Made by a program: the position numbers and the translations under genes
Part shown: in pieces, positions 1,104 to 24,750 of the stretch
Layout of the letters: the number at the start of each line of letters is the position of its first letter
How positions within the stretch are numbered: the stretch's first letter is position 1
The notes under the pieces: generated by a model
What the model saw: only the letters and a program-made list of their open reading frames with translations
The model's database searches: none
What the model was told of the DNA's origin: nothing
Virus genome (UHGV): UHGV-0218987
Origin: a virus
Reading direction: 5' to 3' (one strand)
Length of the DNA stretch: 30,308 nucleotides

Positions 1104-1250
1104 TCATTCATAGTGCAGGGTCAAATCATTCCCACTCAATTATTTACGGCAGCCATAACCAATTGAGTGATAACATTTTTCCAAAAACTAATTTTTTTAG
1201 TACCGTTTTATATACCGTCACCGGAAATCAGTACCATGAAAAATGCCATG

Positions 1251-1733
1251 CTATCTTGTCAGGGTGTCATACTGTTTTTCGCAGACTCTTCCGGCTTCGG
1301 CTGCCCGGTCAGCATACTCTGCCAGTTGTCTGTTTCTCTCGAGAGATTTGCTGAGCACGTCGGCAAGCAAAACTCCGGTATCTGCGGCTGACGCCCCAGC
1401 GCCGACAATGGCGTTATACTGCCTGAGCTGTTCACGGATGGCAACGAGCTGTTGCTGCAACCTGCCAGCGCGAGCGGCAGCATCAAGAGCATCATTGCGC
1501 GCCTGGTCGATCCTCTGCTGCGCTTCACGTTCATTGGTCACTTTCTCCTGTTCGTAGTACTGACGAACTTTTTCTTCTTCGGCTTTGCGGTCTTCTTCCG
1601 CCTGCGCATACCCGGCATCGTACTGACGGCTGCCGTGTATATTCCAGGCAACAACTCCTGATGTGGCAAGAACAGCAAGCATCGCCACGATAAGCAACTG
1701 TTTCCAGTATGCTTTTACGAATATCAGGATCAT
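1251..1733 (-). CDS. Rz: Rz-like i-spanin (inner-membrane spanin)
   Basis: N-terminal TM segment ([18 protein letters not shown]) followed by a coiled-coil periplasmic domain; last gene of the lysis cassette; start overlaps the endolysin stop; contains an embedded lipoprotein ORF in another frame. Confidence 0.75.
1259..1534 (-). CDS. Rz1: Rz1-like o-spanin (outer-membrane lipoprotein) embedded within Rz
   Basis: Fully embedded in the Rz gene in an alternative frame; lipobox LALAGC after a basic n-region; classic Rz/Rz1 embedded architecture. Exact start uncertain. Confidence 0.6.
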   Translation of the reverse strand: MNVKRSRGSTRRAMMLLMLPLALAGCSNSSLPSVNSSGSITPLSALGRQPQIPEFCLPTCSANLSRETDNWQSMLTGQPKPEESAKNSMTP

Positions 1734-2359
1734 ACCGCCAGCACCTTACTGGCAGTTATGTATCGCGCACGCCGGTCGTCGATGCCGTTCCGGCCACCAT
1801 TGATAATCAGAGTTACACGTGCAATATCACCGGTATACTTCATGCAGCCTTTGCTGGCAAAAAACCACGCCGCACTACGAGCCGCATATTCATCCTGCGC
1901 CAGCAGTTCAGGACTCTCCAGCAGGTCAACTTTCAGACCGTTTCCACAGTCACGATAGTTATTCAAACCGGTAATCTGGATAAGCCCGCGCCCACGGTAA
2001 TTCCAGCCATCACCAGGGGCATTGTTACCCATGCGTTTGCTGTACACCAAATTTGCGATCGCTCTCTGGCGCTCAAGTGGCAATGGTGGTTCACCAGCAC
2101 GGCGCCCCAATGCGTTGGCCTGCCCCTGAGTGAGACGCCCAGCCAGAACGAAGTTAGCCAGTCCGGTGACGCTGTAGTTGAAGTTCTCCTGCAGCCGGGT
2201 GAAGCCTCCAGACTCATGCCCGACCTGAGCAATAAACATTGCCTGATCTTCTGGTTTGCTGATACCAAACTCTTTCATCGCAGAAGTTATATGCGAGAAC
2301 CAGCGTGCGGCCAGCGCCTCGCTAATACCAGCAGCTCGCTGGAATTGTTTAATCTCCAT
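1730..2359 (-). CDS. Endolysin, glycoside hydrolase family 19 (chitinase-like lysozyme)
   Basis: GH19-type motifs ([29 protein letters not shown]); GAGGT RBS before the ATG; sits between a membrane protein gene and Rz. Confidence 0.85.
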
Positions 2360-2657
2360 GTTTAGACCTCGTTATTTTGAAAATCTGAACGACGTTACCG
2401 CGAGTTTTAAGAACCGCAGCAAGCATGACAGCATTGATAATGACCTCAGATAAATCCACAGCCATTGGCGTGCGTAACCAGATTGCATAGACGACACGAA
2501 CAGGAATACTGGCCGCAGCAACAATAAGGAAATAAGCAAGCCACCCTCCCCACCTTCGATGTTGTGAACCGTTACGCCGGAATGTGACAACACGAATTGC
2601 TATGCCAGTACAAATAAGTGCATTGGTGATAAGCAAAACAAGCTCATTAGTTACCAT
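2349..2657 (-). CDS. Lysis-associated small membrane protein (second holin or antiholin-like), about 3 TM segments
   Basis: Three hydrophobic segments; start overlaps the holin stop and stop overlaps the endolysin RBS, indicating translational coupling inside the lysis cassette. Confidence 0.6.
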
Positions 2658-3048
2658 CGCCTTTTCTCCCCGGAATTAACTCGCGTGGATTATCGGAACG
2701 GTGATAGAGCCAGATGCCAATTCGAACTGCAACGATTGCTGACACGAATGCACCAGCAGAGAAAACAATCCCTTTCTCGAAAGAGTCCTGCGTGATGGTA
2801 GGGATCAGGCTGGCTACGCCGATAAGGATGGATGCAGTTGGTTTGTAGAAGAGAAGGCCGCAGAGAAAGCTGAGCATCGACAGGAGAACCCGGCGGCGGA
2901 TCGGGTATTCGACAGCCGAGGTAACAAAGATTACCGCGCCTGCCAAAGACCCCAACGCCACTTCTGGCGGGACACCAGCGATTACCGCAGCGAGCGAACC
3001 CATACTAAGCCACTGATTTAAAGACTCACTTGTTAGCCCGGCTGACAT
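2647..3048 (-). CDS. Holin-like membrane protein (first gene of lysis cassette)
   Basis: Multiple TM segments in a protein of about 133 aa directly upstream of the endolysin; start taken as the ATG at 3048 (GGTGG RBS) rather than the GTG at 3057. Confidence 0.65.
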   Translation of the reverse strand: MSAGLTSESLNQWLSMGSLAAVIAGVPPEVALGSLAGAVIFVTSAVEYPIRRRVLLSMLSFLCGLLFYKPTASILIGVASLIPTITQDSFEKGIVFSAGAFVSAIVAVRIGIWLYHRSDNPRELIPGRKGDGN

Positions 3049-3110
3049 AATGACCACCGTTTACTGTGCATAAAGAACCTCCTTAGTTGGTTCTCATATC
3101 ATACACAATA

Positions 3111-6089: not shown

Positions 6090-6109
6090 TACTGTATAAA
6101 TATACAGTT
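6090..6109 (+). promoter_or_regulatory. LexA (SOS) box TACTGTATAAATATACAGTT overlapping the promoter of the 6129 gene
   Basis: CTGT-N8-ACAG with an AT-rich spacer, a near-ideal match to the TACTG(TA)5CAGTA consensus; flanked by a -35-like TTGCTA (6086-6091) and TATTAC (6109-6114); 20 nt upstream of the start codon. Confidence 0.75.
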
Positions 6110-8317: not shown

Positions 8318-8345
8318 GTTAAAAACAAGGCCGCGAAAGCGGCCT
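8318..8345 (-). terminator. Rho-independent terminator after the 8359..8919 gene (convergent with the 8259-8281 terminator)
   Basis: Stem GGCCGC-GAAA-GCGGCC followed on the minus strand by CTTGTTTTTAACG. Confidence 0.6.
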
Positions 8346-8357: not shown

Positions 8358-8358
8358 G

Positions 8359-8919
8359 CTACATTGATATATGATTCATAAAGTAGCTTAAAGATTTACT
8401 TCCCAGAAAAGAAATTTCTTTTCCTGGATATGTCGCAATAATTGAGCATGACTTATCCCCGTTAGAGGTAACAAATCCTGAATAACCTACTTGTTCTTTA
8501 CCATTTTGTTGCTTGGCTAAAAAGTAGAGGTAGCTTATCTTTTTGCCCTCTGGGTAAAACTCTGCCAAACCAGTATCGGTGATTGAATATTTTATTCTCC
8601 CGCCTTGAGTAACGTTTTCCATCTCAAGTTTAGCTATGTCTTTTCTGTTGTATTCAGCATTGATTTTCCTTTCGAAATCAATGTTGTTTTCAAATGAGTA
8701 GGAAGCAACAGTCTGAATAGATGGGAACACGTTTATCTGGATGCCTCCACAGTCGGCACAGGTATAAAGGTATGAATCAGATGGAATCCCCATAAAAGAA
8801 AACTGAGTTACCTTAAATTTATCGTTATCTCCAAAGTATTGAAGTTCGCATTTAACATTTTGCCCTGCAAAAGAAAATGCAGACATCAATATTGAAACAA
8901 AAAATATAATTGCCTTCAT
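8359..8919 (-). CDS. Secreted (signal-peptide) protein of unknown function; AT-rich cargo gene appended to the late operon
   Basis: Signal-peptide-like N-terminus MKAIIFFVSILMSAFSFA; start overlaps the stop of the 850-aa gene (TAATG); visibly AT-rich; followed by a terminator. Confidence 0.7.
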   Translation of the reverse strand: MKAIIFFVSILMSAFSFAGQNVKCELQYFGDNDKFKVTQFSFMGIPSDSYLYTCADCGGIQINVFPSIQTVASYSFENNIDFERKINAEYNRKDIAKLEMENVTQGGRIKYSITDTGLAEFYPEGKKISYLYFLAKQQNGKEQVGYSGFVTSNGDKSCSIIATYPGKEISFLGSKSLSYFMNHISM

Positions 8920-8921
8920 TA

Positions 8922-11474
8922 TTATTTACCTAGCATGAACTGCGATGGTGGGATCAGAAAGTCGTTACCCTGCTCACGCTCAACACGGCGCTGATAACGC
9001 TCAAGAGAGCCTGGGTCAAGGGCATCTTGTATCCGGTTCAATATTAAACCATTCATCGCCGTACGAAGCCAGAACACGTTGAGGAATGGCGTATTGTCAA
9101 GTGCCGTGCGATACCAGTCACCCAAATCTGCATCCCCTCTCGTGGTCTGCTGGAGCAGCGTGATAATGCTGTCAGCGTTCGATGCTGCTGGCCCCATTAG
9201 CGACGTAACCGGCCCGGCCCCCATGCGGTTGACCTCGCCAAACATGAAGTCACCCAAGATGCCAAGACCGCCCCCCTGAGATGCGGCTGCGAGAAACGTC
9301 TTGGCATCTGCCGGGCGTGGTGTTTGCCCTTTCAGCATGAGTTTTGACTGCATGGAGATATAACCAAACATAGTCGCCCAGACAAAGAGGTTTGCAGCAC
9401 CAAGGAAAGCCCCCTTCCCGTTACGTAGCAGCGCATTCGTCAGCGATCCGGTTTTCGACTCACCAAGCCCAGCAGGAATATAACCACGCCCGAATACTTC
9501 GCGTCCTAGTACGTTCTGCATGAAGCTTGCAGTGAACGATTTGTACTGACCAGCGAATCGTATTGCTTCCCCAGCCACCGTTCCTGGCACCGTGCCCATC
9601 TTCATAAACGCCTGCGTGCGATCGCCAGGCTCTGACATGGCGATATTCAGGCGGTCAAGGATGTAGCCGCGCAACTGCCCTTCCAATTGATCGCGTGCGT
9701 CAGCGATAGCGCGCTGCGTTGGTTTGATCCCCTTACTCTCTACATAACCGGCAATCACTTCGTCAGGCACGCCGCGGATGCCGCTGGTCGTCATGAACTT
9801 ACGACCTTCGCTATCGGCCATGTCCATGTTGCGAAAAATTTCCCACTCACGTTCGCCAATACCGTGCAGATCCAGCACGCGTCGCAGGTCTTCCGGTAGC
9901 CGCGCATGAGACTGGTCAGCATTCTTTGCAAGCCAGTTGGTTATCATCATGGCGTTGCTGTTGCGACCGCTCTCGGTCCAGAAGTTCATGAGGTTGTACT
10001 TAAAGAAAAGCTGCTGCGCGCGACCAAGCTTTCCATTCAGCGTGTCATCACCAGATATGCGCCGGATGATTTCCTGCGTCATGGAGTCGGAATAAACTCC
10101 GATAGAGGAAAGGATCTCTTTCTGCTCCGCGCTGTTGTAACGCGTGAAGCGGCCTCTCATAGCACCAAGCAACGCCTGCATAAAATTCTGCCCTTGGTAG
10201 CGCATCTCGGTAGCGGCGATAGGCACGTCGTTAAACGATGAGATTACCGCACCACCAAGTTGGCTCATACGCAACCAGCCGCGTACAGCCGCCGACGCAT
10301 TGGCCCAGCCTACGCTGCCAGGAATATTTAGCGAGCCGTCAACCTGCGGCATTACGGTACGGTTAATGCGACGCACCTTCGTCATGTAGTCAGCCAACGC
10401 TGCCGGTCTTCCGGATTTGCTGATATCTTCAGCAATGGCGTCCGTCAGGTACTTAAACATGTTCTGTGGGTTAGTGCCCAGTACGCGCATCATGCCCGTT
10501 GTGCGGGCAGCGCTGTTTAAGCCACCAAACAGCGCTTCTCGCAGGCTGCCGGTGCCGAATTGCTGGTTGTACTCGTGCCACGAGATACCATCTTTGAAGT
10601 GCAAAATTCGCTCTTGGCTGGCGCGTTTAGCTGCGTTCGCCGATCCCTTAAAGCCATTCATCCAATCGGGCTTTTCAGATGTAAGATGCACGCCGGAAGC
10701 CAGCCCGTTATAAATGTTACGCATGAACTGCTCGCGGTCAGCCACGCCGTCAAAAGTGCGCTCATCAAGGCGCGGGAGAATAGCATTTCGCCATGCTTCA
10801 TAACCTGCGGCGCGGATCTTCATGATGTCGTGTGACTGGCGAACTATATAGCCCGGCTCTTTGCGTATCCATGCCCCGGCGCGGTTCTCATCAATGCGCG
10901 CAGTTTCCTGCCATTTCATGATGATTTGTGCAGCGCTTACGGATTGCTTTGTCATACCGTCAGTTGACTGCCCGCGCCCTATGCGCCACATTGCATCGGC
11001 AATTTCCCGGTCATTGCTGCCGCTGGCGATGAATTGCACCAGTCCGGCACGGTCAAAATCGTAGTTGATACCGGAATGATACTTGCCGCGCAGTTGCGCC
11101 ACCTCCGAAGATACCGACCGGCGGGCGCCGGTACGCGCATCGTTGCGGCCAACCAGCATTGCTTCAAGCCCGATATCCGGGCGGTCTTTCCAGATAGTAC
11201 GAAGCTCTCTAAGTCGTTGTGCGGCAATACGGGCGTTGATTGCCTTATTGCGAGCCTCAATCTGTTTTGCCAGCATATCGGCATTGCTCAGTTCTTCCGC
11301 TGCGCGCATCGCGGCCTCTTCCAGAGACAGCGCCTCATTGGTCGCCAGAATTCGCCTAGTGGTGTCGTTCATGTCACGCACCAGCGACTCCATCTCATCG
11401 GAAGAAAGCTCGCGACCAGCGGCAGCATTTACACTGCGCTCGCACTGCGTCAAAAATTCGTTTGCTGCCATCAC
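8922..11474 (-). CDS. Large internal virion / DNA-ejection protein (850 aa)
   Basis: Long ORF in a run of three large, translationally coupled genes downstream of the tail tubular genes; assignment by position and size (podovirus internal-core analogue), not by a recognised motif. Confidence 0.55.
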   Translation of the reverse strand: MMAANEFLTQCERSVNAAAGRELSSDEMESLVRDMNDTTRRILATNEALSLEEAAMRAAEELSNADMLAKQIEARNKAINARIAAQRLRELRTIWKDRPDIGLEAMLVGRNDARTGARRSVSSEVAQLRGKYHSGINYDFDRAGLVQFIASGSNDREIADAMWRIGRGQSTDGMTKQSVSAAQIIMKWQETARIDENRAGAWIRKEPGYIVRQSHDIMKIRAAGYEAWRNAILPRLDERTFDGVADREQFMRNIYNGLASGVHLTSEKPDWMNGFKGSANAAKRASQERILHFKDGISWHEYNQQFGTGSLREALFGGLNSAARTTGMMRVLGTNPQNMFKYLTDAIAEDISKSGRPAALADYMTKVRRINRTVMPQVDGSLNIPGSVGWANASAAVRGWLRMSQLGGAVISSFNDVPIAATEMRYQGQNFMQALLGAMRGRFTRYNSAEQKEILSSIGVYSDSMTQEIIRRISGDDTLNGKLGRAQQLFFKYNLMNFWTESGRNSNAMMITNWLAKNADQSHARLPEDLRRVLDLHGIGEREWEIFRNMDMADSEGRKFMTTSGIRGVPDEVIAGYVESKGIKPTQRAIADARDQLEGQLRGYILDRLNIAMSEPGDRTQAFMKMGTVPGTVAGEAIRFAGQYKSFTASFMQNVLGREVFGRGYIPAGLGESKTGSLTNALLRNGKGAFLGAANLFVWATMFGYISMQSKLMLKGQTPRPADAKTFLAAASQGGGLGILGDFMFGEVNRMGAGPVTSLMGPAASNADSIITLLQQTTRGDADLGDWYRTALDNTPFLNVFWLRTAMNGLILNRIQDALDPGSLERYQRRVEREQGNDFLIPPSQFMLGK

Positions 11475-13168
11475 ATCCCCCGGTTAATCATACAGGCGGC
11501 AAATGCCCGGAAAGCGTTGCTCATGCTATTGTCGCTGGCGTCGGCACGAATATCATTGAGTTTCTGGCGCAACGTGGTCGCAAGATCAGGGTTATCGACA
11601 GCGATATCGTCAAGCAGGGCGTTACTCAGGTTGAGCTCGTTATCAAGGTCTGCAGCGGCAGCGGTAATTTCATGATCTGCCTTTTGCGTTTCTTGATAAA
11701 CCCGATCGGCTGTTTCGCTTGCTGGGCGAGCCGTTTCATCAACCTGCCGTGCCGGGTTCTGTATGCGATGGATGGCGCGTTCACGCAGTGCCGGTTTGTG
11801 CAGTTCATAGAAGGGCTCAACATCTGGGCTACGTCCTTCCATCATGTGTGCCAGCGCAGCGCGATACGCCTGCTGGTTCACGTTCCAGTCAGCATCCCTG
11901 ATGGCGCTTGCGGCAGTGCGAACTGCGCCAGCGACCGGCGACATCTGCATGCCGTCCAGGATCTGCTGCGCACGCTCGGAAATGGTGACTTTCAGATCGT
12001 CGGGGATATCGCCGCGGGAAATCTGAGACTGGCGCCAGCGCGCCTGCTCTGCTGTCGCGTTCTGCTCCAGCGATGTGTTGATCTCCTGATTGCGTGCAGC
12101 GATGGCGTCTTTCTCGGCCTGAATCTCTTTCAGTGCCCTAGAGCGCGCATCCTTAAACTTCATCCGCTGCCCCTGATACTTTTTGGTGCGCTGCTGCAGC
12201 GTCGCATCAAGCGAGTCAGCATGACGTTGATTAGCCGCAAGCTCGGCACGCAGGTCGGCAACGTTACCGATCTGCCCGCTCTGTAACTCCTGCTGGCGCG
12301 CCATATAGTCAGGAACCACGTCGTCATAAGCCCGGCTGTATGCGTAGCTCTCCGCTTCACTGGAAATGGCCGCCGCCAGATCTGCGTTAGCGCCAACCTC
12401 AGGGATATTCACGCCCGCCGGAATGTTGTCAGGCGTTATCACCGGGGTTGGCTGCGCATCGCCAGAAAACGCCGGGGACTCTCCCGTTGCAGCATCGGGA
12501 ACGCGACGCGGTCGCACGATATCGGCGATAAGGCCGCCGCCGGCATGCATTAGACCGCCAGCCATCGTGTTAAAGAAAGTACTTTCCAACGCGTTGCTAT
12601 AGGTGAAGTCGTCACCTTCCGCCGCCGCTGCCAGCCCGGTAAGCGGCACGGTCACCACCGCCTGCGCTGCCCCCATGCGTGCACCAGCAACAAATCGCTC
12701 GCCAAATCGGCCAAGCACAGAAGCCGCCTTTGCTTCTCCAGCGAACGGAACCAGCGCCAGCGCCACGTTACCAGGATCTGCCATTGAACCAGCTAGGCTG
12801 GCTGCGAAATTAAGCGGCGTGGCTACCCACCCGCTCGGTGCCGACATCGCGATCTGCTGGCGTGCCAGAGAATCTTTGCGTTCGGCAATAACATGATCGA
12901 GAAAAGCCTGCGTAACGCCAGAATCTGGCACGTTTATGCTCTTTACGCCGTACTGCTTCAGGAGCTCATCCGCTTCCTGCTTACTGATAACTGTAGAGTT
13001 TGGGTCATTCGCCAGCGAGTCGGCCTGCGCAAAGCGGTAGCCGGACATGACCGGCCCCTCTTCAAATCCCTGCTTAAGGGAAGAAAGCAGCGATTCGCCA
13101 AGCCCTGCTGGCGCGTTGCCAATTGGCTGGTTAATTCCCTGTCCCGGATCATCTGTGTAAATTGGCAT
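11471..13168 (-). CDS. Internal virion / DNA-ejection protein (565 aa)
   Basis: Coupled to flanking genes by 4-nt overlaps; Ala/Gly-rich with a coiled-coil C-terminal half; assignment by position. Confidence 0.55.
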   Translation of the reverse strand: MPIYTDDPGQGINQPIGNAPAGLGESLLSSLKQGFEEGPVMSGYRFAQADSLANDPNSTVISKQEADELLKQYGVKSINVPDSGVTQAFLDHVIAERKDSLARQQIAMSAPSGWVATPLNFAASLAGSMADPGNVALALVPFAGEAKAASVLGRFGERFVAGARMGAAQAVVTVPLTGLAAAAEGDDFTYSNALESTFFNTMAGGLMHAGGGLIADIVRPRRVPDAATGESPAFSGDAQPTPVITPDNIPAGVNIPEVGANADLAAAISSEAESYAYSRAYDDVVPDYMARQQELQSGQIGNVADLRAELAANQRHADSLDATLQQRTKKYQGQRMKFKDARSRALKEIQAEKDAIAARNQEINTSLEQNATAEQARWRQSQISRGDIPDDLKVTISERAQQILDGMQMSPVAGAVRTAASAIRDADWNVNQQAYRAALAHMMEGRSPDVEPFYELHKPALRERAIHRIQNPARQVDETARPASETADRVYQETQKADHEITAAAADLDNELNLSNALLDDIAVDNPDLATTLRQKLNDIRADASDNSMSNAFRAFAACMINRGM

Positions 13169-13169
13169 G

Positions 13170-15791
13170 TTATCGTCCTGATTGCTGGCCGTTCTGGAAA
13201 ATGTTAATCAGGTTGTCGCGCTGACTTTCTGCGCTGTATTCCTTAGACTGTCCGGGAGTATATTTCACCGGAGTATCAATGAACTTGGTAATGCTGTTCC
13301 ATACTGATCGGTTGGTTGTTCCCAGTTTCGCCAGATCGTTGAACGGCACCGTAATCGGGTTGCCGTCGGCACCGTTGACGATCAGCCCGTTGAGCATCAG
13401 GGTAAGTCCTGTTTCGTCGCTGTTGGTAACCCACTGCGCATTATCACGAATGCGGGAGATACTCTGCTCACGGTTGACCTCATCAGGTAGCCTTGGGTCA
13501 CCAATAAGCGGCATAATCTGATCTGCTGACAGGTTTTTCAGATACGCATTGGCACCATCGTTAACGTCACGAATATCTATCCCTGCACGCTTAGGTAGCC
13601 GCCAAGTGCCATTGGTCTGGTACTGCTCGCCGAGGATGTCCTGATACGCCTGTTTTGCTGCATCAGACGCCGACATTCCGCGCTGCATGTTGATGTAAGT
13701 AAGTCGTTTTCCCTGCTCGTTGAAGTTATTCCACACGGCAGTGCCACCAGGCTGAACAACCATCGTGCCAGCAAAATCTTTCGATTGGTCATTCCATGAC
13801 GAGTCGGCGCTATCCGCGTCGGTTTTCTCAAGACTGCCGCGTAAGTCAGCAGTTTTAACGCTACGGTTTTGCCAGAGCGCATTTGCCGCGCGCGGGTTCT
13901 CGGTAGCCATGACAACCTGCAACGCAGGATAAGCGCTCTTCTGAACCTGCTGCATCACCTGATCCGAGTATTTGCCGAACGACTGCGCCACCGACTGAAT
14001 GGCCTTTACGCTAGATTCCTGCGTGTTGTCAATACGCTGCAGTACATCATTGACCATGGACTCCGGTAAAACTTTTTTGCTCATTATCCCCAGGCGGTCT
14101 TTTTCAGACTGTATTCGGGAAACTAGGTATTCACCAGATGAAGGGTCATTCAGGTACTGCTGGAATGCAGCCTGCACAACCGGAGAGTTTTGTTGCAGCC
14201 ATGCCCCCGGATCCGCTTCCCGCGCCTTCAGTACCTGCCCAAGCTTGACCTTTGCCGATGCATAAAGCTCTGCTTTGTATTTAAAGTCAGGGTCGTTTTC
14301 CTGCGGTGCCATTGCCTGCACGGCGGCGGTACCCTGCTGGACGTTGCCCTGCATAATGGTCTGATAAACAGGTTGTAGCGTCATTGCCTGCTGGTATTGC
14401 TGGAAGGTTTTTTCCATCTGCAGGCGCTCGGCAGGCGCTGCCTGAAGCGGCATAACGGCGGCCCATTCGTGCGCTGAAATAGGCGTCACCTGCTTACCGG
14501 CCTCAATTTTGGATAGGTCGTCCTGCATTCGACTCTGTAGCGCAACGCGACCGGCTGAAGCCTGCATGTCGTACATGCCAGCAACCTTGCTCATCATCTG
14601 CGACTTTTTGTCCGGACTCATGGCGTTCCAGAATGGCTGTGCGATGAGGTTTTCCATCGTCGCAGATCCAGGAATAGCTCCAGCACTGCCAGTTACTTTT
14701 GCCACATAATTGCGCGTCTCGTCGTATGGGATAGCTGCGGCAAACTGGGCGTTACTGACTTCGCCTGTGCGCGGGTCGCCAATCTGTTTAATCCAGCCGT
14801 CAACCTTTCCTGGGCCAGCGTTATAGGCAGCTACTGCCAGAACCGGGTTATTGTCGTATTTCTTCATCTGCGCGCCGAAATAAGCTTGCCCCAAGCGGGC
14901 ATTATAGCGCGGGTCATTCAACCATTTATCGCGGTCCCACGGCACGCCAGCAAGGCGGGCAGCTTCGGGGCCAGTATCTTCCGTCACCTGCGCTACGCCA
15001 ACAGCGCCTTTTGGCGACACCAGAGGTGTTCCGTCCTTTCCGTACTGATTTCCGCCACTCTCCTGCCAGATTATTGCAGAGAATAACTGCGCCTCACTCG
15101 GTGTATCGGTTACCTCAATCTTGCCGTTCGGACCCATCATCTGTTGATACATCGGCACATACCACGCCTCCGCCGCACCGTTCGCGGCATTCTCGCGCCA
15201 CGAAACCCAGTTCTGTTCGATCTCTTCCTGACTCTGGCCGTGGGCTTCGCCGTAAGCGATGATGCTATGATATGCCTTCAATCCTGCCTGGTTTGCCATT
15301 GTCGGGTTACGGAACTGCATCGATAGGTTTTTTAGTGTCGCATCCTGCATATCCGCCTCATACTGGCGAACCTGTCCTATTTCGTACCTCCCGGCCTGCG
15401 TAGTGAACTGAATGCGCTGCTGCTGCGCCTGCTGCATGAAAGCATTACGAGCCTGTTCATCCGGCAGCGACATAGCCAGTTGCTCGACCTGGGCATCAAA
15501 CTGCTGCGTATACTCCTGACCTTTTCCAATAGCATTTTTCCCTTTCAGGTTAAGCAATCCTGTTTCAGGATTATTCAGCAGATCGCTGCTTATCTGACTG
15601 AGGTTAAGAGATGCCTCCTGAGCCAGAGCGATATTGGCACGCTGTTTTGCCTGCCCCAAAACATCAATTGCCTCTGTCCCTGCCCGAACAAAAGCATCAC
15701 CAATACCTTGCTGAGAAAACGTCTGCAAGCCTGCTGACTGAACTCCACGACTCTCAACCTGACGTCCGGATACTGTTGGTACGACTGGCAT
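13170..15791 (-). CDS. Internal virion protein with lytic transglycosylase (SLT/GH23) domain
   Basis: SLT motifs IIWQESGGNQYG … GVAQV … AAYNAGPGKV. Start taken at ATG 15791 (MPVVPTVSG…, TAATG overlap with the upstream stop) rather than the listed 15866. Confidence 0.75.
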   Translation of the reverse strand: MPVVPTVSGRQVESRGVQSAGLQTFSQQGIGDAFVRAGTEAIDVLGQAKQRANIALAQEASLNLSQISSDLLNNPETGLLNLKGKNAIGKGQEYTQQFDAQVEQLAMSLPDEQARNAFMQQAQQQRIQFTTQAGRYEIGQVRQYEADMQDATLKNLSMQFRNPTMANQAGLKAYHSIIAYGEAHGQSQEEIEQNWVSWRENAANGAAEAWYVPMYQQMMGPNGKIEVTDTPSEAQLFSAIIWQESGGNQYGKDGTPLVSPKGAVGVAQVTEDTGPEAARLAGVPWDRDKWLNDPRYNARLGQAYFGAQMKKYDNNPVLAVAAYNAGPGKVDGWIKQIGDPRTGEVSNAQFAAAIPYDETRNYVAKVTGSAGAIPGSATMENLIAQPFWNAMSPDKKSQMMSKVAGMYDMQASAGRVALQSRMQDDLSKIEAGKQVTPISAHEWAAVMPLQAAPAERLQMEKTFQQYQQAMTLQPVYQTIMQGNVQQGTAAVQAMAPQENDPDFKYKAELYASAKVKLGQVLKAREADPGAWLQQNSPVVQAAFQQYLNDPSSGEYLVSRIQSEKDRLGIMSKKVLPESMVNDVLQRIDNTQESSVKAIQSVAQSFGKYSDQVMQQVQKSAYPALQVVMATENPRAANALWQNRSVKTADLRGSLEKTDADSADSSWNDQSKDFAGTMVVQPGGTAVWNNFNEQGKRLTYINMQRGMSASDAAKQAYQDILGEQYQTNGTWRLPKRAGIDIRDVNDGANAYLKNLSADQIMPLIGDPRLPDEVNREQSISRIRDNAQWVTNSDETGLTLMLNGLIVNGADGNPITVPFNDLAKLGTTNRSVWNSITKFIDTPVKYTPGQSKEYSAESQRDNLINIFQNGQQSGR

Positions 15792-16336
15792 TATAATCCT
15801 CCGGGTAATCTGGTTCCTGCTGCTGCCCCGATTGGCGCAGGAGTGCTTTGAGTAAACGGACTCCACGTCCCACCAAACATCTGGTACGCACCGTATGCCT
15901 TCAGAGGCGCAGTGAGCAATGTTGTTGCTGCTCCCACATTCCCCTGTTTACGGGCTGAACTGGCTTCTGCTTTATAGTTGGCAGCCTGAACCTGATAACC
16001 GTAAGCCTCGCGTTGCGCGTTATTCACCGTCGTCAGCGAATCAAGAGCGCCAAACTGGGCAGTGTCGCCAAATATATCCAGCGCGTTACCTGTAGATAAA
16101 TCAGAGCCGGTAGCCCCCATTGTCGCCGCCTGTGTACCAAGCCGCTGTCGGGTCTCTCTGCGCCGTTGCTCAGCTTCAGCGTTACCCCTGTTTATTGCAT
16201 CATTTGCCTGAGCTGTGGCTATATCTGCGTTCGCTTCTGCAACCTTCGAGGCATACTTTCCCTGTTGGTACTGGGTGTATGCCTGAATGCCACTCATGGC
16301 GAGCATTGCGCCACCAGCAATAACCGGATCGCACAT
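15791..16336 (-). CDS. Small internal virion protein (T7 gp14-like by position)
   Basis: 181-aa Ala/Gln-rich protein between the tail tubular genes and the large ejection proteins; tightly coupled to its neighbours. Confidence 0.5.
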   Translation of the reverse strand: MCDPVIAGGAMLAMSGIQAYTQYQQGKYASKVAEANADIATAQANDAINRGNAEAEQRRRETRQRLGTQAATMGATGSDLSTGNALDIFGDTAQFGALDSLTTVNNAQREAYGYQVQAANYKAEASSARKQGNVGAATTLLTAPLKAYGAYQMFGGTWSPFTQSTPAPIGAAAGTRLPGGL

Positions 16337-16800
16337 TATTTTCTCTCCATGTGAAATCTGTGGAAATTAAGACCAAGTGCACCATAAGGCGCGGCTTCTT
16401 CAAGCCTGAATCCAAGCCAGTGCAGCCATGCTTTGGCAACATGGTTTCGCTCATCGACATAGTTTTCCAGGCGCGGATAAACTGCCAGCATCTGCTGCAA
16501 TACAGGGCGGCAGTGGCGCAGAAATGTCTTCTGATATTTTTCAATACGGCTGGTCCCGACCAGCCAGGGCGTACCATTGCCACCGATCATTGACGCCGGA
16601 GATACACCAAACATGGTTACCAGTTCTCCGTTTGCGAACCCTGACCAGGCCATAGTCGCAGTGCGAAGACCAACACGCAGCGCATCTTCGGTAGTCATCA
16701 GCGATACCGCATACAGTTCGTCAATATCAGCCTGACGAACATCCGGCAAAATCATCTGAAGATGCTCTTCGGTGGCGGGAATAATTCGAACATCGATCAT
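16336..16800 (-). CDS. Virion-associated hypothetical protein (154 aa; T7 gp13-like by position)
   Basis: Start overlaps the stop of the tail tubular B-like gene; no motif recognised. Confidence 0.45.
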   Translation of the reverse strand: MIDVRIIPATEEHLQMILPDVRQADIDELYAVSLMTTEDALRVGLRTATMAWSGFANGELVTMFGVSPASMIGGNGTPWLVGTSRIEKYQKTFLRHCRPVLQQMLAVYPRLENYVDERNHVAKAWLHWLGFRLEEAAPYGALGLNFHRFHMERK

Positions 16801-19265
16801 CAGAATCCCCCAACAGTAAGACGAGGAGTAACGGCAAGAACAGACAGCGGCAACGGGTCAAGCTGACGGATTCTTACACGTCCGTTTTTGCCCCAGTTAC
16901 TGTCCAGTTTCACTTCTACTTTTCCGGTAGCGTCATCAACAGGATCATCGTAGAACTCGAATTCACGCTGTGGATATTCGTACCATTTACCGCCGGGCGT
17001 AGTCGCCCAGATGCCGCGACTGGCATTCACAACCAGAGTAACGGACGGGATCACCTGTTTTTTGTCCAGCAGCGTTTCCTGTCCGTTAATGTTGATATCC
17101 AGTGTTTCGAATTCAGCAGTTATTGGCAGGCCGATGTGCACTACAGCCCCCGGAGATTCCAGCGTGACGGCACCTCCGGAAACAACTTTCTGTGGTTCCA
17201 CGTTCGCATCAGAGAGAATGTTTACGGTCTGGCCTTCAAGATGAGACAGTCCTCCAAATGTCCGGCGCGCCATCTGCCAGTTCGTGGTGGCCACATTCCT
17301 GAGGGATGATGGGACGTTCCTGTTAGGGCGAACCACTACAGCGGTATTGCTGGTTACAGAAATAATGTCGCAACGTAATTCTTTTGACACTTCATCGCCA
17401 GGATCAGTTCCGGTATAAGGGAACTGTAGTTGAGCACCGACATCACTACTGGTGAAGTACGCACCACCAGAAACACTGATTGTATATTCCGCGCGGTAAT
17501 CCCATTCGCCAGAACCACCAGTGATGATCATCGTTCTGTCAGACGTATTTCTTCCATCATAGCTAAGGCCAGAATCAACAAAGAAAGCATCTTCATCGCT
17601 GGTAAATAAACGGCTGGACAGTCGCTCGATGTATCTCACTGTTTGCCCGTTAACGGTTCGGTTAACGACGAAATACACCGCATCTTCATTGCCTTCGCTG
17701 ATACTGCATGTGCTTTCATATTTTCCGGTACTGGATTGTGGTGCCCATGCAAAAACCTGCTGATCACGCAAATAGGTCATCACCAGTAATTTACCGTCAT
17801 CACGAATGCAGAAGGCGCTGGAGTAAGGGACAATCGAGAAGCACCAGTCAACAATGCTGTGCTTCTGAAAAAGATGATTGGCAAGGATGGTCAGGTCGTT
17901 CCCCTGATAGCCGTCAACATCGAATGAGTAGGCCAGATCACGGACAACGCTGCCTTTCTCCTGGACGAACAAAGCAATATTCGCCACGGCAATTGGCGGG
18001 ACGTTGCTTGAGCCATTTGATCCCTGAGAGCTGAATGCAAATGATGATGGGGTTAACACTTTGTTCTGGTCGCCGGTGATGACGTACTCACCTCCGGAAG
18101 TCAGCGCCACCAGCGAACCAACATCAATCAGGTGACGGATCTCATTAACCTGACGCCCGGCATAGGTGTAGATAATTCTGTCATCATCCTGCGTAGGATT
18201 GCTTTTGCCAAAATCCTTATAATCCCCAGTACGGCTGGCCCAGATAGTCTGAGGGAACGCAGTCGATGCGGCGAAGTAAAGACGTTGTTGATAATAAACA
18301 ACAGTGCCAGGATAACCATTAACACTGTTCCAGGCATATTTAGCCCATTTATAGCTGGCATTATCCTCGCCAACTACCTGCGAAGGGATATAGGAAATCA
18401 CCTCGGCAGTTGCAGTAGTTCCATTTGCAGCAGTGATACGGGCAATGCCAAAACCACTGTGCAGATATTCCCACTCAATGCCAGTATCATCATCACCGGA
18501 TCCGCCCCAGCCATCCCATGATGTGCCTTCTGTATGCGAAGGGCGCAAAGTACCTGTTTTGCCTGCTGTAACGGCGCGATAGTAGTTACTGTCTGCACGG
18601 CGAATATCGCCAATCGACGTACTCTTACTGGTTTCCCATACCGGCACAGAATCCACTGCAGGCTGTTCCAGATAGAACAATTTGCCTACCTGCTCCGCGC
18701 CAAAAATAGAGGCGCTTGCCGTTAACGTAATTGTCCCGGTGCTGGCGCTGGCATAAACCGTCACTGACTCGTCAATATTGATATCTTCAAATGGCCCGTT
18801 CTTCGTTACCACATCAACCAGTTGCCAGTTGTCATGCGCATAGCGGCGCAACTCTTTCGGCGGGTATGCCGGGTGAACCAGCGTAAGCACGTCTGCGCTT
18901 TGCGTGAATTTAATTCGGAACAGATCGGCTTCAGTATATGGCGTGGCAATTTCATAAATAACATTGCTGCTGTTCAGCACCAACGCACCATCTTTGATAA
19001 CGCGCATGTACTGGTGTCCGAACTCCAGAGCATAAGTCTGAACCGTCGAGAATTGGAACGGGATCAGGCGGCATTTCCGATTTGGGTATTTGGCGGCACC
19101 GACAAAACGCGTACCAGGTCGATTCTCAACGCCGCCATACTGCCGCACGATAAAGTTATCGCACTTGCGCAATGCCACCTGGTACTTCGCCATGTCGATA
19201 CGACCGTACAACGACGGTCCAATCTCACCACCGGCAAAGCTGGGCTGGATCCAACTGATAGCCAT
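16800..19265 (-). CDS. Tail tubular protein B-like (T7 gp12-like nozzle protein)
   Basis: 821-aa ORF immediately downstream of the gp11-like gene; size and order match the T7 gp11/gp12 pair. Sequence-level similarity to gp12 was not confirmed. Confidence 0.5.
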   Translation of the reverse strand: MAISWIQPSFAGGEIGPSLYGRIDMAKYQVALRKCDNFIVRQYGGVENRPGTRFVGAAKYPNRKCRLIPFQFSTVQTYALEFGHQYMRVIKDGALVLNSSNVIYEIATPYTEADLFRIKFTQSADVLTLVHPAYPPKELRRYAHDNWQLVDVVTKNGPFEDINIDESVTVYASASTGTITLTASASIFGAEQVGKLFYLEQPAVDSVPVWETSKSTSIGDIRRADSNYYRAVTAGKTGTLRPSHTEGTSWDGWGGSGDDDTGIEWEYLHSGFGIARITAANGTTATAEVISYIPSQVVGEDNASYKWAKYAWNSVNGYPGTVVYYQQRLYFAASTAFPQTIWASRTGDYKDFGKSNPTQDDDRIIYTYAGRQVNEIRHLIDVGSLVALTSGGEYVITGDQNKVLTPSSFAFSSQGSNGSSNVPPIAVANIALFVQEKGSVVRDLAYSFDVDGYQGNDLTILANHLFQKHSIVDWCFSIVPYSSAFCIRDDGKLLVMTYLRDQQVFAWAPQSSTGKYESTCSISEGNEDAVYFVVNRTVNGQTVRYIERLSSRLFTSDEDAFFVDSGLSYDGRNTSDRTMIITGGSGEWDYRAEYTISVSGGAYFTSSDVGAQLQFPYTGTDPGDEVSKELRCDIISVTSNTAVVVRPNRNVPSSLRNVATTNWQMARRTFGGLSHLEGQTVNILSDANVEPQKVVSGGAVTLESPGAVVHIGLPITAEFETLDININGQETLLDKKQVIPSVTLVVNASRGIWATTPGGKWYEYPQREFEFYDDPVDDATGKVEVKLDSNWGKNGRVRIRQLDPLPLSVLAVTPRLTVGGF

Positions 19266-19870
19266 CAGGACAACCTCGCAATGGTAAACTCGTCAACCGG
19301 TGGCTGTGGTTCCTGTGATTCATTCTGGCTATGCGAGCCAGCACTAAGAATCACGCGATTGTACATATTGAGGGCAAACGTACCGAGGTCTGCATTCCCA
19401 GTCAGCGCCATGTTAATAGCTGCCGCAAGACGCCAGGCTAACGCCTCCATAAAAATGGCATCAAACATGTTCACATCTGTAACGCGAGAGACATACTTGA
19501 GCCATGCCTGAGGCTGGTCTGTGTAGATCAACTTTCCTGTTCCGTTGGTGTCTGCACCAACTTCGTACTGAACGCGCATTGGTGCTGCTGGATTGCGTAC
19601 ACCAGGAAGCATAATTTCAGTAATGCGCAGACAATCGGACGGGTACTGGTACGCATATTCCCAGTCAGGCGGTGGATTGCTCGTATCTGCAAGCGCCACG
19701 CGTTTGGTAGCAAAGTTCCAGTCAAAATCAGAAAGCACAGCATCACGGCAGGCCTCAAAGTGCAGCGAACATTCCCCCGCTTCCTTGCTGGCTTCCGTCA
19801 GGCTGTTAATGCTGCGGCTATTGCCAATATTGGACAGCGCGCGATTGCAGATCTCTACTACAGAGGCCAT
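19265..19870 (-). CDS. Tail tubular protein A-like (T7 gp11-like adaptor or gatekeeper)
   Basis: 201 aa; N-terminal pattern NRALSNIGNSRSINSLTEA … FDWNF resembles T7 gp11 (ILASIGEPPVSTLEGD … GWTFN) as recalled from memory. Confidence 0.55.
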   Translation of the reverse strand: MASVVEICNRALSNIGNSRSINSLTEASKEAGECSLHFEACRDAVLSDFDWNFATKRVALADTSNPPPDWEYAYQYPSDCLRITEIMLPGVRNPAAPMRVQYEVGADTNGTGKLIYTDQPQAWLKYVSRVTDVNMFDAIFMEALAWRLAAAINMALTGNADLGTFALNMYNRVILSAGSHSQNESQEPQPPVDEFTIARLS

Positions 19871-20193
19871 TACTCCCCCCCATTGCCGTACAGAGTTTCA
19901 GCCGCTGATTTTCCTACATCACCGGAAACAGGAGCGATAGCCATATCAGTGATCTGCAGATCGGCGCTGCGATTAACACCATCGTCAGTTTCTCTGGCAG
20001 ACAGGCCTCGAATAACAGCCTTTGCAGTTATCATCACTTCTGTTCCGACGCCCTGAGGTTGCGCCTTCAGCTTATTCAATGTGTCGTTATTCAGCGTGAT
20101 GCACAGCCCCCACGGGTATTCATCGCGAGTTCTGGTTTCTCCGCTCTCATCCTGGTAGCTGTCAGTGCCTGTTTTGAGGTTTACGAGTTCCAT
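19870..20193 (-). CDS. Hypothetical structural-module protein
   Basis: ORF with AGGAG RBS 5 nt before the ATG at 20193; stop overlaps the start of the gp11-like gene. Confidence 0.5.
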   Translation of the reverse strand: MELVNLKTGTDSYQDESGETRTRDEYPWGLCITLNNDTLNKLKAQPQGVGTEVMITAKAVIRGLSARETDDGVNRSADLQITDMAIAPVSGDVGKSAAETLYGNGGE

Positions 20194-20204
20194 ATACACT
20201 CCTG

Positions 20205-20232
20205 CAATAAAGGGGCCGAAGCCCCTTGTCTG
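20205..20232 (-). terminator. Hairpin / weak terminator downstream of 20244..20588
   Basis: Stem AGGGGC-CGAA-GCCCCT; weak T-tract (TATTGC) on the minus strand, so it may be an attenuator or RNA stability element. Confidence 0.4.
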
Positions 20233-20243
20233 ATTCGCGAGGC

Positions 20244-20588: not shown

Positions 20589-20589
20589 C

Positions 20590-21027: not shown

Positions 21028-21078
21028 CTTCTTTCTCCATTAGTGGGTCTGTTACGACCCACAGGTTAATAACAGGCG

Positions 21079-22071: not shown

Positions 22072-22079
22072 TTCCTCTC

Positions 22080-22781: not shown

Positions 22782-23074
22782 TCCTGTTCACTGGCCTCTT
22801 TGGCCATCTTCAAATACTGTTCAGGGCAATGCGCCATAACGCGCTGAAACAGCTCCAGCGCCAGATTGCGTTGCCCCTCATTAAATGCCATTGCCATAGC
22901 ATCCATCGGAGAGATAGCGGAAAACACCCGGCCTTTCTCCAGCACAGACCAGACAACGCGACGCCCCTGTTCACTGCTCATGACAAAGCGAATGTCATCA
23001 ATTTCACGCTGTGCCATGTCACGTTGCTTACGGGCGTTTTCTTCTTTCAGTTGATCGTCTTCGTAATCTGTCAT
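22778..23074 (-). CDS. Hypothetical small head-module protein
   Basis: 98-aa ORF overlapping the portal stop and the scaffold start (4-nt overlaps). Confidence 0.45.
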   Translation of the reverse strand: MTDYEDDQLKEENARKQRDMAQREIDDIRFVMSSEQGRRVVWSVLEKGRVFSAISPMDAMAMAFNEGQRNLALELFQRVMAHCPEQYLKMAKEASEQE

Positions 23075-24750
23075 TGTGATTGCCCACCCTGACCACTAAC
23101 TGCATTCGCCATAGCTGACAAAACACTCGGATCCGAAGTTTTAGCTTCGCTTAGCGTCTTGGCACCCTGTGCCGCCGCCATCCCCATCGCCATCATTTGT
23201 TGCTGCTGTTGTTGCTGTGCCCGTTGCTGGCGAGCCTGCTCAACCTGTTCCTGCGGAACAATGACGGTTGGAGACACTCCAGACATATCAGCGAATGCAT
23301 CGATCGCCTGATCAACGTTGAGTTTGTCGAGAGCTTCTGGTTTCGCTTGCGCAAGTTGACCAATGAAGTTAACCGTGGACGCCAGACTGGACAGGCCGAT
23401 AGACTTCTGCGCCTGAGCCATGACGGAAATGTATTCGACCTTCAGGGGCATGCCTTCCATCGCGTCAGGCGGTGGCGGCAACATGTTTTTACGCACCATC
23501 ATCGAGAAAGCGCGGTCAATGAGAGGATTAAGACATTCGTCGTTCAGACGCTCCAGAACCGGCCCCAACATCAGAAGTTTTTCTTCTTTCATTTCGATCA
23601 CCGCTTCAACAGGCATCGAGCGGGTATTGATGTTCTGCAACATCATGAACAGATCGACAAAGTAGGCGCTGTTAATGATTTGACGAGTGTCCTGAATGTC
23701 TGCCACCAAATCTGCTGTACTGGGGTTAACCAGATAAGCAGGCCTGAAGCCATCCTGACCAGTAATCTGATCGATATACGTGATGTCGCCAGGAAGAAGG
23801 GAGGCGCGCTGATTCTTGAGGGAAGTCGGAGCAACCATCGGAGGATTGGTGGCTTTATCAATCAACTGCGACTTGCGCTTCTGGAGAAGCTGCAATGCCT
23901 TAACAGGTCCAAGCGCCAGCATACCCGGGCATGATGATCCATAAACATCTTCGCCGTTAACTTCCCAGCGCGGAGCCATAATTGGAAACTCATCGAATCC
24001 GGACTCACGCAACAACTTGTCGTTATCGCCACCAACCTCGTAATAAACCGATTTGAATGGCTTGTTCTTGCTATCCAGCTTCGATGTATCGCGGTCAATG
24101 TTCGGATAAACCGAATGCATCACTTCAATCCACTTCTCGTAGGTGCCGCTTTCCCACATGCTTTTTACGGATTCGCTGACGTTATTTAGTCCGAATTCCT
24201 GAACAAGCTGACGAACAGTCATAGAGAACTTGCGAAAACAGGTGTCCACACTGCCACGAGGTGAGTTAGCCAGGTAGTAACTTCCTATCGGGAATGGCAT
24301 TGTACGAATGATGTCCTCGTCATCCTCCAGCACCGCCATTGCACCGGTGCTGTATGTGCCGAGGCTTCCGTATAACTGCGGCAGCGACTGATAGAGATTC
24401 GACTTATTGAACATATCGTTCATGCGGTTCTGCACTGCCTCAAGCCACAACTTAACAGGGCCATAATCCATCATTTCAGGATCTGGCGTAGCCAGGCGAA
24501 ACCACGGACGCACGGGGCTTGTGATGCCTGACATCATGCCGCTGGCGAGAGTGCGCGCCGCCATAGTCCCAGTCGAATCAATAATGCGTGTATTGCGTCG
24601 ATCGTTACGGTTGACCTCAGAAGTCAGAAAGCGGGAACCACGCGGGTTGATGTAATCACTCAACTCGCGCCAGTGCGGCTCGAACGACTGACGCTCGCTT
24701 TCAAGTTGTGCGAACTGTTTGTTCAATCGCTCTTTAGTTGTTTCCGCCAT
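23071..24750 (-). CDS. Portal (head-to-tail connector) protein
   Basis: 559-aa ORF upstream of the scaffold and capsid genes with GGAG RBS; size and position consistent with a podovirus portal; acidic Gln-rich C-terminus. Confidence 0.7.
   Translation of the reverse strand: MAETTKERLNKQFAQLESERQSFEPHWRELSDYINPRGSRFLTSEVNRNDRRNTRIIDSTGTMAARTLASGMMSGITSPVRPWFRLATPDPEMMDYGPVKLWLEAVQNRMNDMFNKSNLYQSLPQLYGSLGTYSTGAMAVLEDDEDIIRTMPFPIGSYYLANSPRGSVDTCFRKFSMTVRQLVQEFGLNNVSESVKSMWESGTYEKWIEVMHSVYPNIDRDTSKLDSKNKPFKSVYYEVGGDNDKLLRESGFDEFPIMAPRWEVNGEDVYGSSCPGMLALGPVKALQLLQKRKSQLIDKATNPPMVAPTSLKNQRASLLPGDITYIDQITGQDGFRPAYLVNPSTADLVADIQDTRQIINSAYFVDLFMMLQNINTRSMPVEAVIEMKEEKLLMLGPVLERLNDECLNPLIDRAFSMMVRKNMLPPPPDAMEGMPLKVEYISVMAQAQKSIGLSSLASTVNFIGQLAQAKPEALDKLNVDQAIDAFADMSGVSPTVIVPQEQVEQARQQRAQQQQQQQMMAMGMAAAQGAKTLSEAKTSDPSVLSAMANAVSGQGGQSQ

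Follow-up and report, generated by a model that had tools for sequence, protein, structure and literature searches.

The tail and DNA-ejection module of a phiV10/epsilon15-type temperate podovirus and its alternative block of large internal proteins

Capsid-packaged proteins that form a channel across the bacterial envelope are known only for bacteriophage T7 and, at low resolution, for epsilon15 (PMC8954989). The epsilon15 virion is described as containing the capsid protein gp7, the staple gp10, the tail tubular A and B homologs gp11 and gp12 and the internal virion proteins IVP-A, IVP-B and IVP-D (gp17), with a core stack inside the capsid and a transient tail tube that appears on infection (PMC4819975, PMC8954989); the T7-like tail and ejection proteins of this phage are already published. 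The temperate Uetakevirus vB_EcoP_ZX5 integrates at the 3' end of guaA, with ATTGAGTGGGAATGATT as its reported att core (PMC9782041). Here we have analysed UHGV virus genome UHGV-0218987, a 30,308-nucleotide stretch of DNA (hereafter the window), for which an original prediction, made from the sequence alone, had proposed a T7-type ejectosome in a temperate, lambdoid-style context. We conclude with high confidence that the tail and DNA-ejection genes of this stretch belong to a temperate podovirus of the phiV10/epsilon15 type (Uetakevirus-like) that resides at the guaA/yfgI att site of Escherichia coli. What it adds to the known picture is modest: an alternative cassette of ejection proteins, joined to the rest within a gene and linked to a predicted secreted protein.

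Host DNA makes up the left 1.1 kb of the window and includes yfgI (DUF5384) at 494-1033. When the window was compared with phiV10 (NC_007804, genus Uetakevirus) by blastn, nucleotide similarity started precisely at the att core at 1124-1140, and the presence of the core together with the onset of phiV10 similarity at this very point identifies the rest of the window as one arm of an integrated prophage. The gene order is identical to that of phiV10, running through terminase, portal, protease/scaffold, capsid, cement and staple, two tail proteins, two small internal virion proteins and three large proteins to the Bro antirepressor region, the tailspike and the lysis cassette. Nucleotide identity to phiV10 is 97% across 15373-28284 (12.9 kb of head and tail genes; blastn), and the adaptor, nozzle, gp13-like protein, gp14-like protein, portal, capsid and terminase are 98.5-100% identical to the phiV10 proteins. 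Pfam searches recovered an epsilon15-type head, i.e. a GP7 capsid (E 3e-149), a Gp10-like staple (E 5e-51) and a Bbp16-type cement protein (E 5e-47), as well as Bbp19. In strain TUM9975, a 99%-identical prophage extends past the limits of the window, where it has genes for replication and recombination as well as a repressor and an integrase. The predicted temperate lifestyle is well founded, given the att core and the integrase and repressor genes of near-identical E. coli loci.

In a megablast search of 8300-20300 against 50,697 phage records, phiV10, ZX5, TL-2011b, phiv142-3 and the O157 typing phages 9 and 10 matched at ~98% identity, covering only 15376-20300, while epsilon15, Tyrion and Salmonella relatives matched at 75-80%. 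A match to the same region is present in 572 of 5426 complete E. coli genomes, and the whole 12 kb is found at ~99% in 56 of them. Of the comparisons with temperate podoviruses suggested at the outset, that of the window with phiV10 places the element in the Uetakevirus/epsilon15 group through collinearity. Similarity to phiV10, estimated as aligned fraction multiplied by identity, is ~57%, a figure that is calculated from window segments only and describes a window that is part of the prophage. For orientation, the genus-level nucleotide similarity used by the International Committee on Taxonomy of Viruses (ICTV) is about 70%.

Table 1. Features of the window discussed in the text, with coordinates, strand and the evidence on which each assignment is based.
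Feature	Coordinates	Strand	Basis
Tail adaptor, predicted T7 gp11 / tail tubular protein A type, 201 aa	19265..19870	-	phrog_394, 8CK1_E, AF2 fold
Tail nozzle, T7 gp12 / tail tubular protein B type, 821 aa	16800..19265	-	phrog_376, 8CK1_A, hhalign
Small internal virion protein A, T7 gp13-like, 154 aa	16336..16800	-	phrog_308
Internal virion protein B, T7 gp14 family, 181 aa	15791..16336	-	Pfam PF24072, phrog_418
Large internal protein with SLT lytic transglycosylase domain, gp15 position, 873 aa	13170..15791	-	Pfam SLT
Large internal protein, candidate counterpart of middle T7 gp16, 565 aa	11471..13168	-	phrog_3003, phrog_342
Large internal protein, IVP-D / putative C-terminal T7 gp16-like, 849 aa	8922..11471	-	phrog_684
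Signal-peptide protein, last operon gene, 186 aa	8359..8919	-	phrog_11983
Terminator-like hairpin closing the late structural operon	8328..8345	-	stem AGGCCGC..GCGGCCT, then T-run
Portal, T7 gp8 family, 559 aa, putative adaptor docking site	23071..24750	-	Pfam PF12236 Head-tail_con (E 5e-187); 98.9% to phiV10 p07
7-kb block without nucleotide similarity to phiV10 (alternative ejection allele and 186-aa gene)	8361..15372	.	blastn, window vs phiV10
Lysis cassette: two holin-family genes, GH19 endolysin, Rz (DUF2514), embedded Rz1-position ORF (1259-1534, 91 aa)	1251..3057	-	Pfam
SOS (LexA) box, near-consensus TACTGTATAAATATACAGTT	6090..6109	+	20 nt before ATG 6129 of the 85-aa gene
Prophage att core / junction with host yfgI side	1124..1140	-	exact match to ZX5 att core ATTGAGTGGGAATGATT; left limit of phiV10 homology

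Between 30084 and 8359, every long reading frame is on the minus strand. The tail and internal-protein genes among them form one tightly coupled operon from 19870 to 8922 in which neighbouring genes overlap by 1-4 nt, and both the gene calls and the coupling agree with the RefSeq models of the 99%-identical prophage. PHROG tail or internal-virion family matches of the operon proteins range from E 1e-62 to 0. At the far end, 8300-8360, beside the hairpin listed in Table 1, matches the phiV10 terminator region (blastn). Pairwise blastp and phmmer comparisons of every window protein with T7 gp8 and gp11-16 gave nothing significant; since all scores were at noise level, we tested the T7 relationship by profiles and structures instead. 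Neither Pfam nor NCBIfam provided a usable match for the adaptor, the nozzle or the 565-, 849- and 186-aa proteins.

The adaptor belongs to phrog_394 ('tail protein', E 4e-87), is 99% identical to phiV10 p14 and matches the PDB entry 8CK1_E, 'Connector Protein', with E 7e-26 at roughly 30% identity. An AF2 model built from 39 homologs (pLDDT 88) retrieved the Carin-1 connector (8CK1, TM 0.83), the LME-1 and PhiM1 adaptors and KP32 tail tubular protein A in a Foldseek search, and all 24 matches at E <= 0.001 were podovirus tail, adaptor or connector entries. The same model matched T7 gp11 (7BOX_M) with E 3.5e-6, TM 0.57 and prob 1.0; it is by predicted fold, and not by sequence, that the adaptor appears to be of the T7 gp11 type. 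For the nozzle (phrog_376, E 0; 98.5% identical to phiV10 p15) the connection is visible in the sequence profile as well. In addition to the 'Tail Nozzle' 8CK1_A (E 7e-217) and orf18 of 9EFK (E 1.5e-15), a profile of nine diverse nozzle homologs reached 'Tail tubular protein B' of cyanophage A4 (9K09_U, E 9e-10), and hhalign aligned the nozzle with T7 gp12 over 386 columns (T7 residues 351-782; prob 90%, E 1.4e-6). This alignment covers and extends the conserved central domain, T7 gp12 residues 354-556, that is given by Hardies et al. (PMC4819975). A literature search for the PDB code 8CK1 returned no relevant paper. The gp11-like and gp12-like pair of the original prediction is, therefore, upheld, by fold for the adaptor and by 8CK1 and hhalign to T7 gp12 for the nozzle, and both proteins are podovirus parts rather than the siphovirus or myovirus tail components that had been named beforehand as the contrary outcome.

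Homologs of gp13 and gp14 sit directly after the nozzle gene. The 154-aa protein, which is 98.7% identical to phiV10 p16, matches phrog_308 with E 2e-62, and T7 gp13 falls into the same PHROG (E 1e-42); syntenic counterparts of its gene in related phages are annotated as acetyltransferase. The 181-aa protein (99.4% identical to phiV10 p17; phrog_418) scores 31.7 bits against the Pfam family PF24072, T7_gp14, with a cut-off of 27, and its counterpart in the 99%-identical prophage bears the RefSeq name 'virion core protein, T7 gp14 family'. In T7, gp14 is the outer-membrane pore of the ejectosome. The order of tube A, tube B, an acetyltransferase-like protein, IVP-B and a lysozyme-bearing protein recurs in podophages of Pelagibacter, Burkholderia, Alteromonas and Acinetobacter.

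The 873-aa protein encoded next starts with a helical N-terminus, carries an SLT domain at residues ~231-380 and ends in a C-terminal part that is helical apart from a small beta region. The Pfam SLT match has E 1.5e-17, the SLT profile finds SLT70 (E 4e-32) and has a weak match to the corresponding domain of T7 gp16, and the catalytic motifs WQES (E-S with the catalytic Glu), GVAQV and AAYNAGPG are intact. These features point to a peptidoglycan hydrolase domain that is carried by the gp15-position protein rather than by gp16, an arrangement already known from K1E/K1-5 (PMC8954989). The AF2 model of the protein (pLDDT 88.6) retrieved SLT70 in Foldseek, along with T7 gp15 in the ejectosome tunnel structure 7K5C_A (E 4e-4, prob 0.99) and in 6YT5_A (E 7e-3). 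Its neighbours in BFVD are 700-900-aa podovirus proteins that share a common helical scaffold and differ in their inserts (tail lysozyme, GH108, SLT, NlpC/P60 or M23). From its position and this hint of fold, we consider it likely but unproven that the 873-aa protein is a gp15-like scaffold with an inserted SLT domain; IVP-C of the epsilon15 family could likewise not be confirmed by Hardies et al. (PMC4819975). As to the extent of the gene, the PHROG match begins at residue 26 of an 898-aa open reading frame (ORF) and RefSeq uses the start at ATG 15791, which shares one base with the stop codon upstream and yields 873 aa. The 898-aa version of the mechanical ORF call, with its GTG extension (15866) and an overlap of 76 nt with the gp14-family gene, was rejected.

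Two further large proteins follow. The 565-aa protein matches phrog_3003 (E 5e-282) and also phrog_342, the PHROG of T7 gp16, with E 1.1e-8 over profile positions 224-624; its best phage relatives are found in Stenotrophomonas phage BUCT708 (39%) and Pseudomonas phage Ab31 (31%), and neither blastp against phiV10 p19 nor tblastn against epsilon15 gave a match. The 849-aa protein falls into phrog_684 together with phiV10 p20, to which it is 23% identical, and is 48-53% identical to its BUCT708 homolog. The phiV10 annotation likens p20 to BcepC6B gp17, which is listed together with epsilon15 gp17 as IVP-D in PMC4819975. Its motif QYKSFTASF aligns weakly and collinearly with QFKSFTIKS of T7 gp16 (residues 1089-1125; E 0.017). 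No solved structure matches either protein by sequence. It is a reasonable inference that T7 gp16, without its hydrolase domain, has its counterpart in the 565- and 849-aa proteins taken together. Small and large internal proteins, one of them with an SLT domain, are all present as originally predicted; the range then assigned, with its limit at 13170, holds only the first of the three large ones.

A number of results weigh against reading this operon as a T7-type ejection module. A sequence-level tie of the adaptor to T7 gp11 was found neither by blastp or phmmer, nor with a hidden Markov model (HMM) of the 39 homologs searched against PDB sequences, nor by hhalign, and so the profile check that had been proposed for the tail pair succeeded for the nozzle, which reaches T7 gp12, and failed for the adaptor. 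The match between the 873-aa model and T7 gp15 has a Foldseek TM of only 0.15-0.19, and further down, the hit list also contains dynein and importins, all-helical proteins being prone to attract spurious matches. Sequence tests of this pair were also negative (Pfam PF26212; hhalign to gp15 alone and to a 15-sequence gp15 alignment; hhalign E 0.2), the sole alignment being a short C-terminal WVTN...L.L motif. For T7 gp16, hhalign was not significant with either the 565-aa (E 0.16) or the 849-aa protein (E 0.017); both profiles are shallow, the homolog search having given only relatives of at least 72% identity. Finally, this ejection allele is known from prophage genes, and searches of phage records found no cultured phage that carries it. 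The T7-type ejectosome of the original prediction is, therefore, sustained in part: the gp13 PHROG, the gp14 Pfam family and the SLT domain speak for it, and the direct sequence tests against gp15 and gp16 lack significance.

A mechanism can be modelled on what was observed: which genes are present and in what order, the assignments made for adaptor, nozzle, gp13-like protein and gp14-family protein, an SLT domain with catalytic motifs, and the lineage. Virion location, stoichiometry, order of ejection and the gp15/gp16 correspondences are all inferred, by homology to solved T7-type and epsilon15-group tails. By this analogy, twelve adaptor subunits would dock on the T7 gp8-type portal and six nozzle subunits would close the channel and carry the tailspikes, while the gp13-like, gp14-family, 873-, 565- and 849-aa proteins would be packaged in the head as an internal core. 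At infection the core proteins would leave ahead of the DNA, with the gp14-family protein presumably forming a pore in the outer membrane. The SLT protein would cut peptidoglycan and, as the gp15-position protein, build the periplasmic tunnel, and the 565- and 849-aa proteins may act as T7 gp16 minus the hydrolase at the inner-membrane/cytoplasmic end.

Among the alternatives, the one that survives best, and which we nevertheless consider unlikely, gives the three large proteins no part in ejection and makes them external components of the tail hub or fibres or, in the case of the SLT protein, a lysis enzyme. The PHROG labels 'endolysin', 'head protein' and 'virion structural protein' would allow for this, as would the fact that, in the available parts of PMC4819975, the proteins of the epsilon15 transient tail tube are not clearly identified and gp17 is no more than a candidate. 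However, the lysis cassette already provides a dedicated GH19 endolysin with holins and spanins; the SLT protein has no signal peptide or transmembrane segment and is encoded directly after the gp14-family gene, i.e. in the conserved IVP position; the BFVD neighbours with their common scaffold and varied hydrolase inserts fit virion-borne wall-piercing proteins; and the 565-aa protein matches the gp16 PHROG. We, therefore, retain the assignment of the three large proteins to ejection.

Similarity to phiV10 at the nucleotide level stops at 15373 and resumes only at 8300-8360. Within the SLT gene the break is sharp: in 50-residue windows, the protein is 98-100% identical to phiV10 p18 up to about residue 140 and 20-30% identical thereafter, in good agreement with the end of nucleotide similarity at 15373, and a protein comparison aligned the two over residues 1-235 only. 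Relative to phiV10, the three large ejection proteins and the trailing gene for a signal-peptide protein have been exchanged as one block, with the joint inside the SLT gene at about residue 140. The three large genes have a GC content of 55-59%, compared with ~50% in the flanking phage DNA. The predicted wall-hydrolase domain is not the same in both alleles: phiV10 p18 has no Pfam SLT match and fits a different 'tail injection transglycosylase' PHROG.

Among sequenced phages, Stenotrophomonas phages BUCT708/709 and Pseudomonas phage Ab31 come nearest to the allele, at only 31-53% identity. Prophage homologs of the 565-aa protein are considerably closer, with 90% identity in Cronobacter sakazakii, 83% in Pseudescherichia and 72-76% in Klebsiella, Citrobacter, Salmonella, Kosakonia and Dickeya, and the allele itself is present in 56 of the 5426 complete E. 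coli genomes with ~99% conservation. Judging from these database comparisons, the allele appears to be common in enterobacterial prophages and absent from the enterobacterial records of the phage collection searched. A direct import from a Stenotrophomonas- or Pseudomonas-type phage was considered and rejected, both because the identities of 36-53% are no higher than that of the capsid protein (46%) and because closer homologs exist in Cronobacter and other Enterobacterales prophages; enterobacterial prophages, with Cronobacter at 90%, are the more likely true donors.

The last gene of the block encodes a 186-aa protein with the N-terminal signal peptide MKAIIFFVSILMSAFSFA. With a GC content of ~39%, it belongs only to phrog_11983 (unknown function); Pfam, NCBIfam and PADLOC gave no match, and tblastn against the 50,697 phage records was empty. 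The gene is found in 56 E. coli genomes, the same count as for the ejection-protein block. Its product could be a lysogenic-conversion or exclusion factor or, alternatively, a virion accessory protein.

Could the block from 8361 to 15372 simply be the mark of a defective, decaying prophage, in which foreign DNA has disrupted the ejection genes and left the module non-functional? A joint within a gene, a GC content unlike that of the flanks and the lack of a cultured phage with the allele would be compatible with this. Decay is, nonetheless, very improbable: no reading frame is broken, the joint preserves the frame, translational coupling is maintained, the chimeric 873-aa protein is modelled confidently (pLDDT 88.6), and the block is ~99% conserved in 56 genomes, with 72-90% identical homologs widespread in other Enterobacterales prophages. 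This conservation and the wide distribution of homologs indicate selection for function.

A more specific reading, which we put forward tentatively as a possibility that has less going for it than against it, is that the 7-kb block forms a 'distal ejectosome cassette', complete in itself and exchangeable, that can recombine behind an unchanged set of tail, gp13 and gp14 genes. Such a cassette would comprise a gp15-position scaffold with a swappable hydrolase insert, two proteins equivalent to T7 gp16 without the hydrolase and the signal-peptide protein as a secreted partner. If this were true, the first ~140 residues of the SLT protein would be the conserved piece that docks to the invariant parts, phiV10 and the present allele would amount to a natural swap experiment for the contacts that hold the podovirus core together, and such pairs would also show whether the ejection cassette sets host or envelope compatibility. 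More generally, the three large ejection proteins have been exchanged as one block against a background of 99%-identical tail and small core proteins, which provides a near-isogenic phage pair for asking which ejection-protein contacts are essential and flags an uncharacterised, predicted secreted protein that travels with the cassette.

The second divergent part of the late region is the tailspike (914 aa, 3189-5933, minus strand). Its N-terminus resembles phiV10 p25 (63% identity over ~230 aa) and is followed by G7C gp63.1-type domains and an SGNH/GDSL esterase domain, the GDSL matches being below the Pfam cut-offs. Such a composition is suggestive of a spike that deacetylates O-antigen, and not of a glycosidase. 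The window has no counterpart of the phiV10 O-acetyltransferase gene (oac).

The lysis cassette contains the Pfam families Phage_holin_8, Phage_holin_3_7, Glyco_hydro_19 and DUF2514 and has 90% nucleotide identity to phiV10 p27-p30a. The holin/GH19/Rz-Rz1 arrangement was predicted correctly; the 91-aa ORF is a putative Rz1 by position and length, like phiV10 p30a. Induction under LexA control had also been predicted. A near-consensus SOS box lies upstream of the 85-aa gene (phiV10 p24 / epsilon15 p19-like), which heads a plus-strand group with a Bro-N antirepressor-type gene (6687-7412) and a YafO-like toxin gene (7687-8259), and the box is found at the same place in phiV10 and strain TUM9975 (L001 20822-20837 and L002 14366-14381). 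In ZX5, the lytic cycle is promoted by overexpression of the phage's own Bro-type antirepressor, which is only 39% identical to the phiV10 protein, and the prophage can be induced with mitomycin C; the available parts of that report make no mention of LexA (PMC9782041). The box is real and retained, and LexA-controlled induction through the antirepressor is plausible as a lineage-typical trait. Sites of the form CTGT-N8-ACAG number three in the window, compared with 0.35 expected. The two palindromes besides the SOS box (25591-25606 and 21049-21064) have spacers that are less AT-rich than those of a typical LexA box; one is located 68 nt upstream of a plus-strand gene of the gp49/Sf6-gp66 family (25674-26030) and the other between the capsid and Bbp16-type cement genes, and coordinate mapping places similar palindromes at apparently corresponding positions in phiV10 and TUM9975.

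Low-GC accessory genes are present, as the predicted cargo islands implied, and PADLOC found no defence-system match for them. The YafO-like toxin gene (plus strand) scores just above the Pfam cut-off and lies in a segment without a phiV10 nucleotide match, in which no cognate antitoxin was identified. The segment closes with a terminator on the plus strand, opposite the one that ends the late operon on the minus strand (8258-8345). A tRNA-Arg gene with anticodon TCT (codon AGA) is located at 25399-25475 on the plus strand, between the portal-side genes and the terminase, and is annotated in the TUM9975 prophage too. AGA is a rare codon in E. coli.

The element had been described as a mosaic worth classifying. 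This view does not hold for the backbone: the window is gene-for-gene collinear with phiV10, the lineage itself is the source of the lysis cassette, of the SOS box and antirepressor operon and of the att core, and the element is an unremarkable member of the epsilon15/phiV10 group. Mosaicism proper is found in the large ejection proteins, for the most part beyond the range originally assigned, and in the receptor-binding part of the tailspike. A recent chimera, in which a T7-like (Autographiviridae-type) tail and ejectosome were grafted on a lambdoid temperate backbone, is the least credible alternative of all, for although the lineage has lambdoid-type early genes (replication protein P, RecT, Ea22-like and DUF1064) and a holin/endolysin/Rz-Rz1 layout of its lysis cassette, the whole architecture, including that cassette and the SOS box, is common to phiV10 and found in 572 of 5426 complete E. 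coli genomes, and the protein similarity to T7, significant for no protein in pairwise blastp, is ancient. This combination of ancient similarity and wide sharing identifies an old, established lineage, the Uetakevirus/epsilon15 group (PMC4819975), rather than a fresh graft.

How does the locus compare with the individual systems on which these assignments draw? The Carin-1 tail (8CK1) and the LME-1 portal-tail complex (9EFK) are the closest solved structures for the nozzle and adaptor, although they come from different phages with different hosts. With T7 the element shares a PF12236 portal, the predicted adaptor fold, nozzle homology over ~390 residues, the gp13 PHROG, the gp14 Pfam family, a presumably virion-borne SLT-type transglycosylase and the gene order. 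Unlike the window with its three large proteins, T7 has two, and its SLT domain is located on gp16 and not on the gp15-position protein; sequence identity between the two systems is near noise. T7 is also strictly lytic and encodes its own RNA polymerase, whereas the element described here is temperate.

BUCT708/709 and Ab31 have epsilon15-like virions and are the nearest phages for the ejection trio, which in BUCT708 has the same order, with 36% identity for the SLT protein, 39% for the 565-aa protein and 48-53% for the 849-aa protein. They differ from the present element in infecting distant hosts and in their adaptor, nozzle and portal, which are only 27-32% identical. Epsilon15 itself shares ~75% nucleotide identity over the tail genes and differs in host and tailspike; its genome has no nucleotide-level match to the ejection allele of the window, the protein sequences not having been compared directly. 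Closest of all are phiV10 and its relatives ZX5, TL-2011b, phiv142-3 and the O157 typing phages 9 and 10, which are alike in their terminase-to-lysis order, att core, lysis cassette and place of the SOS box. Compared with phiV10, the window element has replaced the three large internal proteins, carries a tailspike with a different receptor part, apparently of the SGNH esterase type, lacks oac and encodes the 186-aa signal-peptide protein in the place where phiV10 has the 46-aa membrane protein p21.

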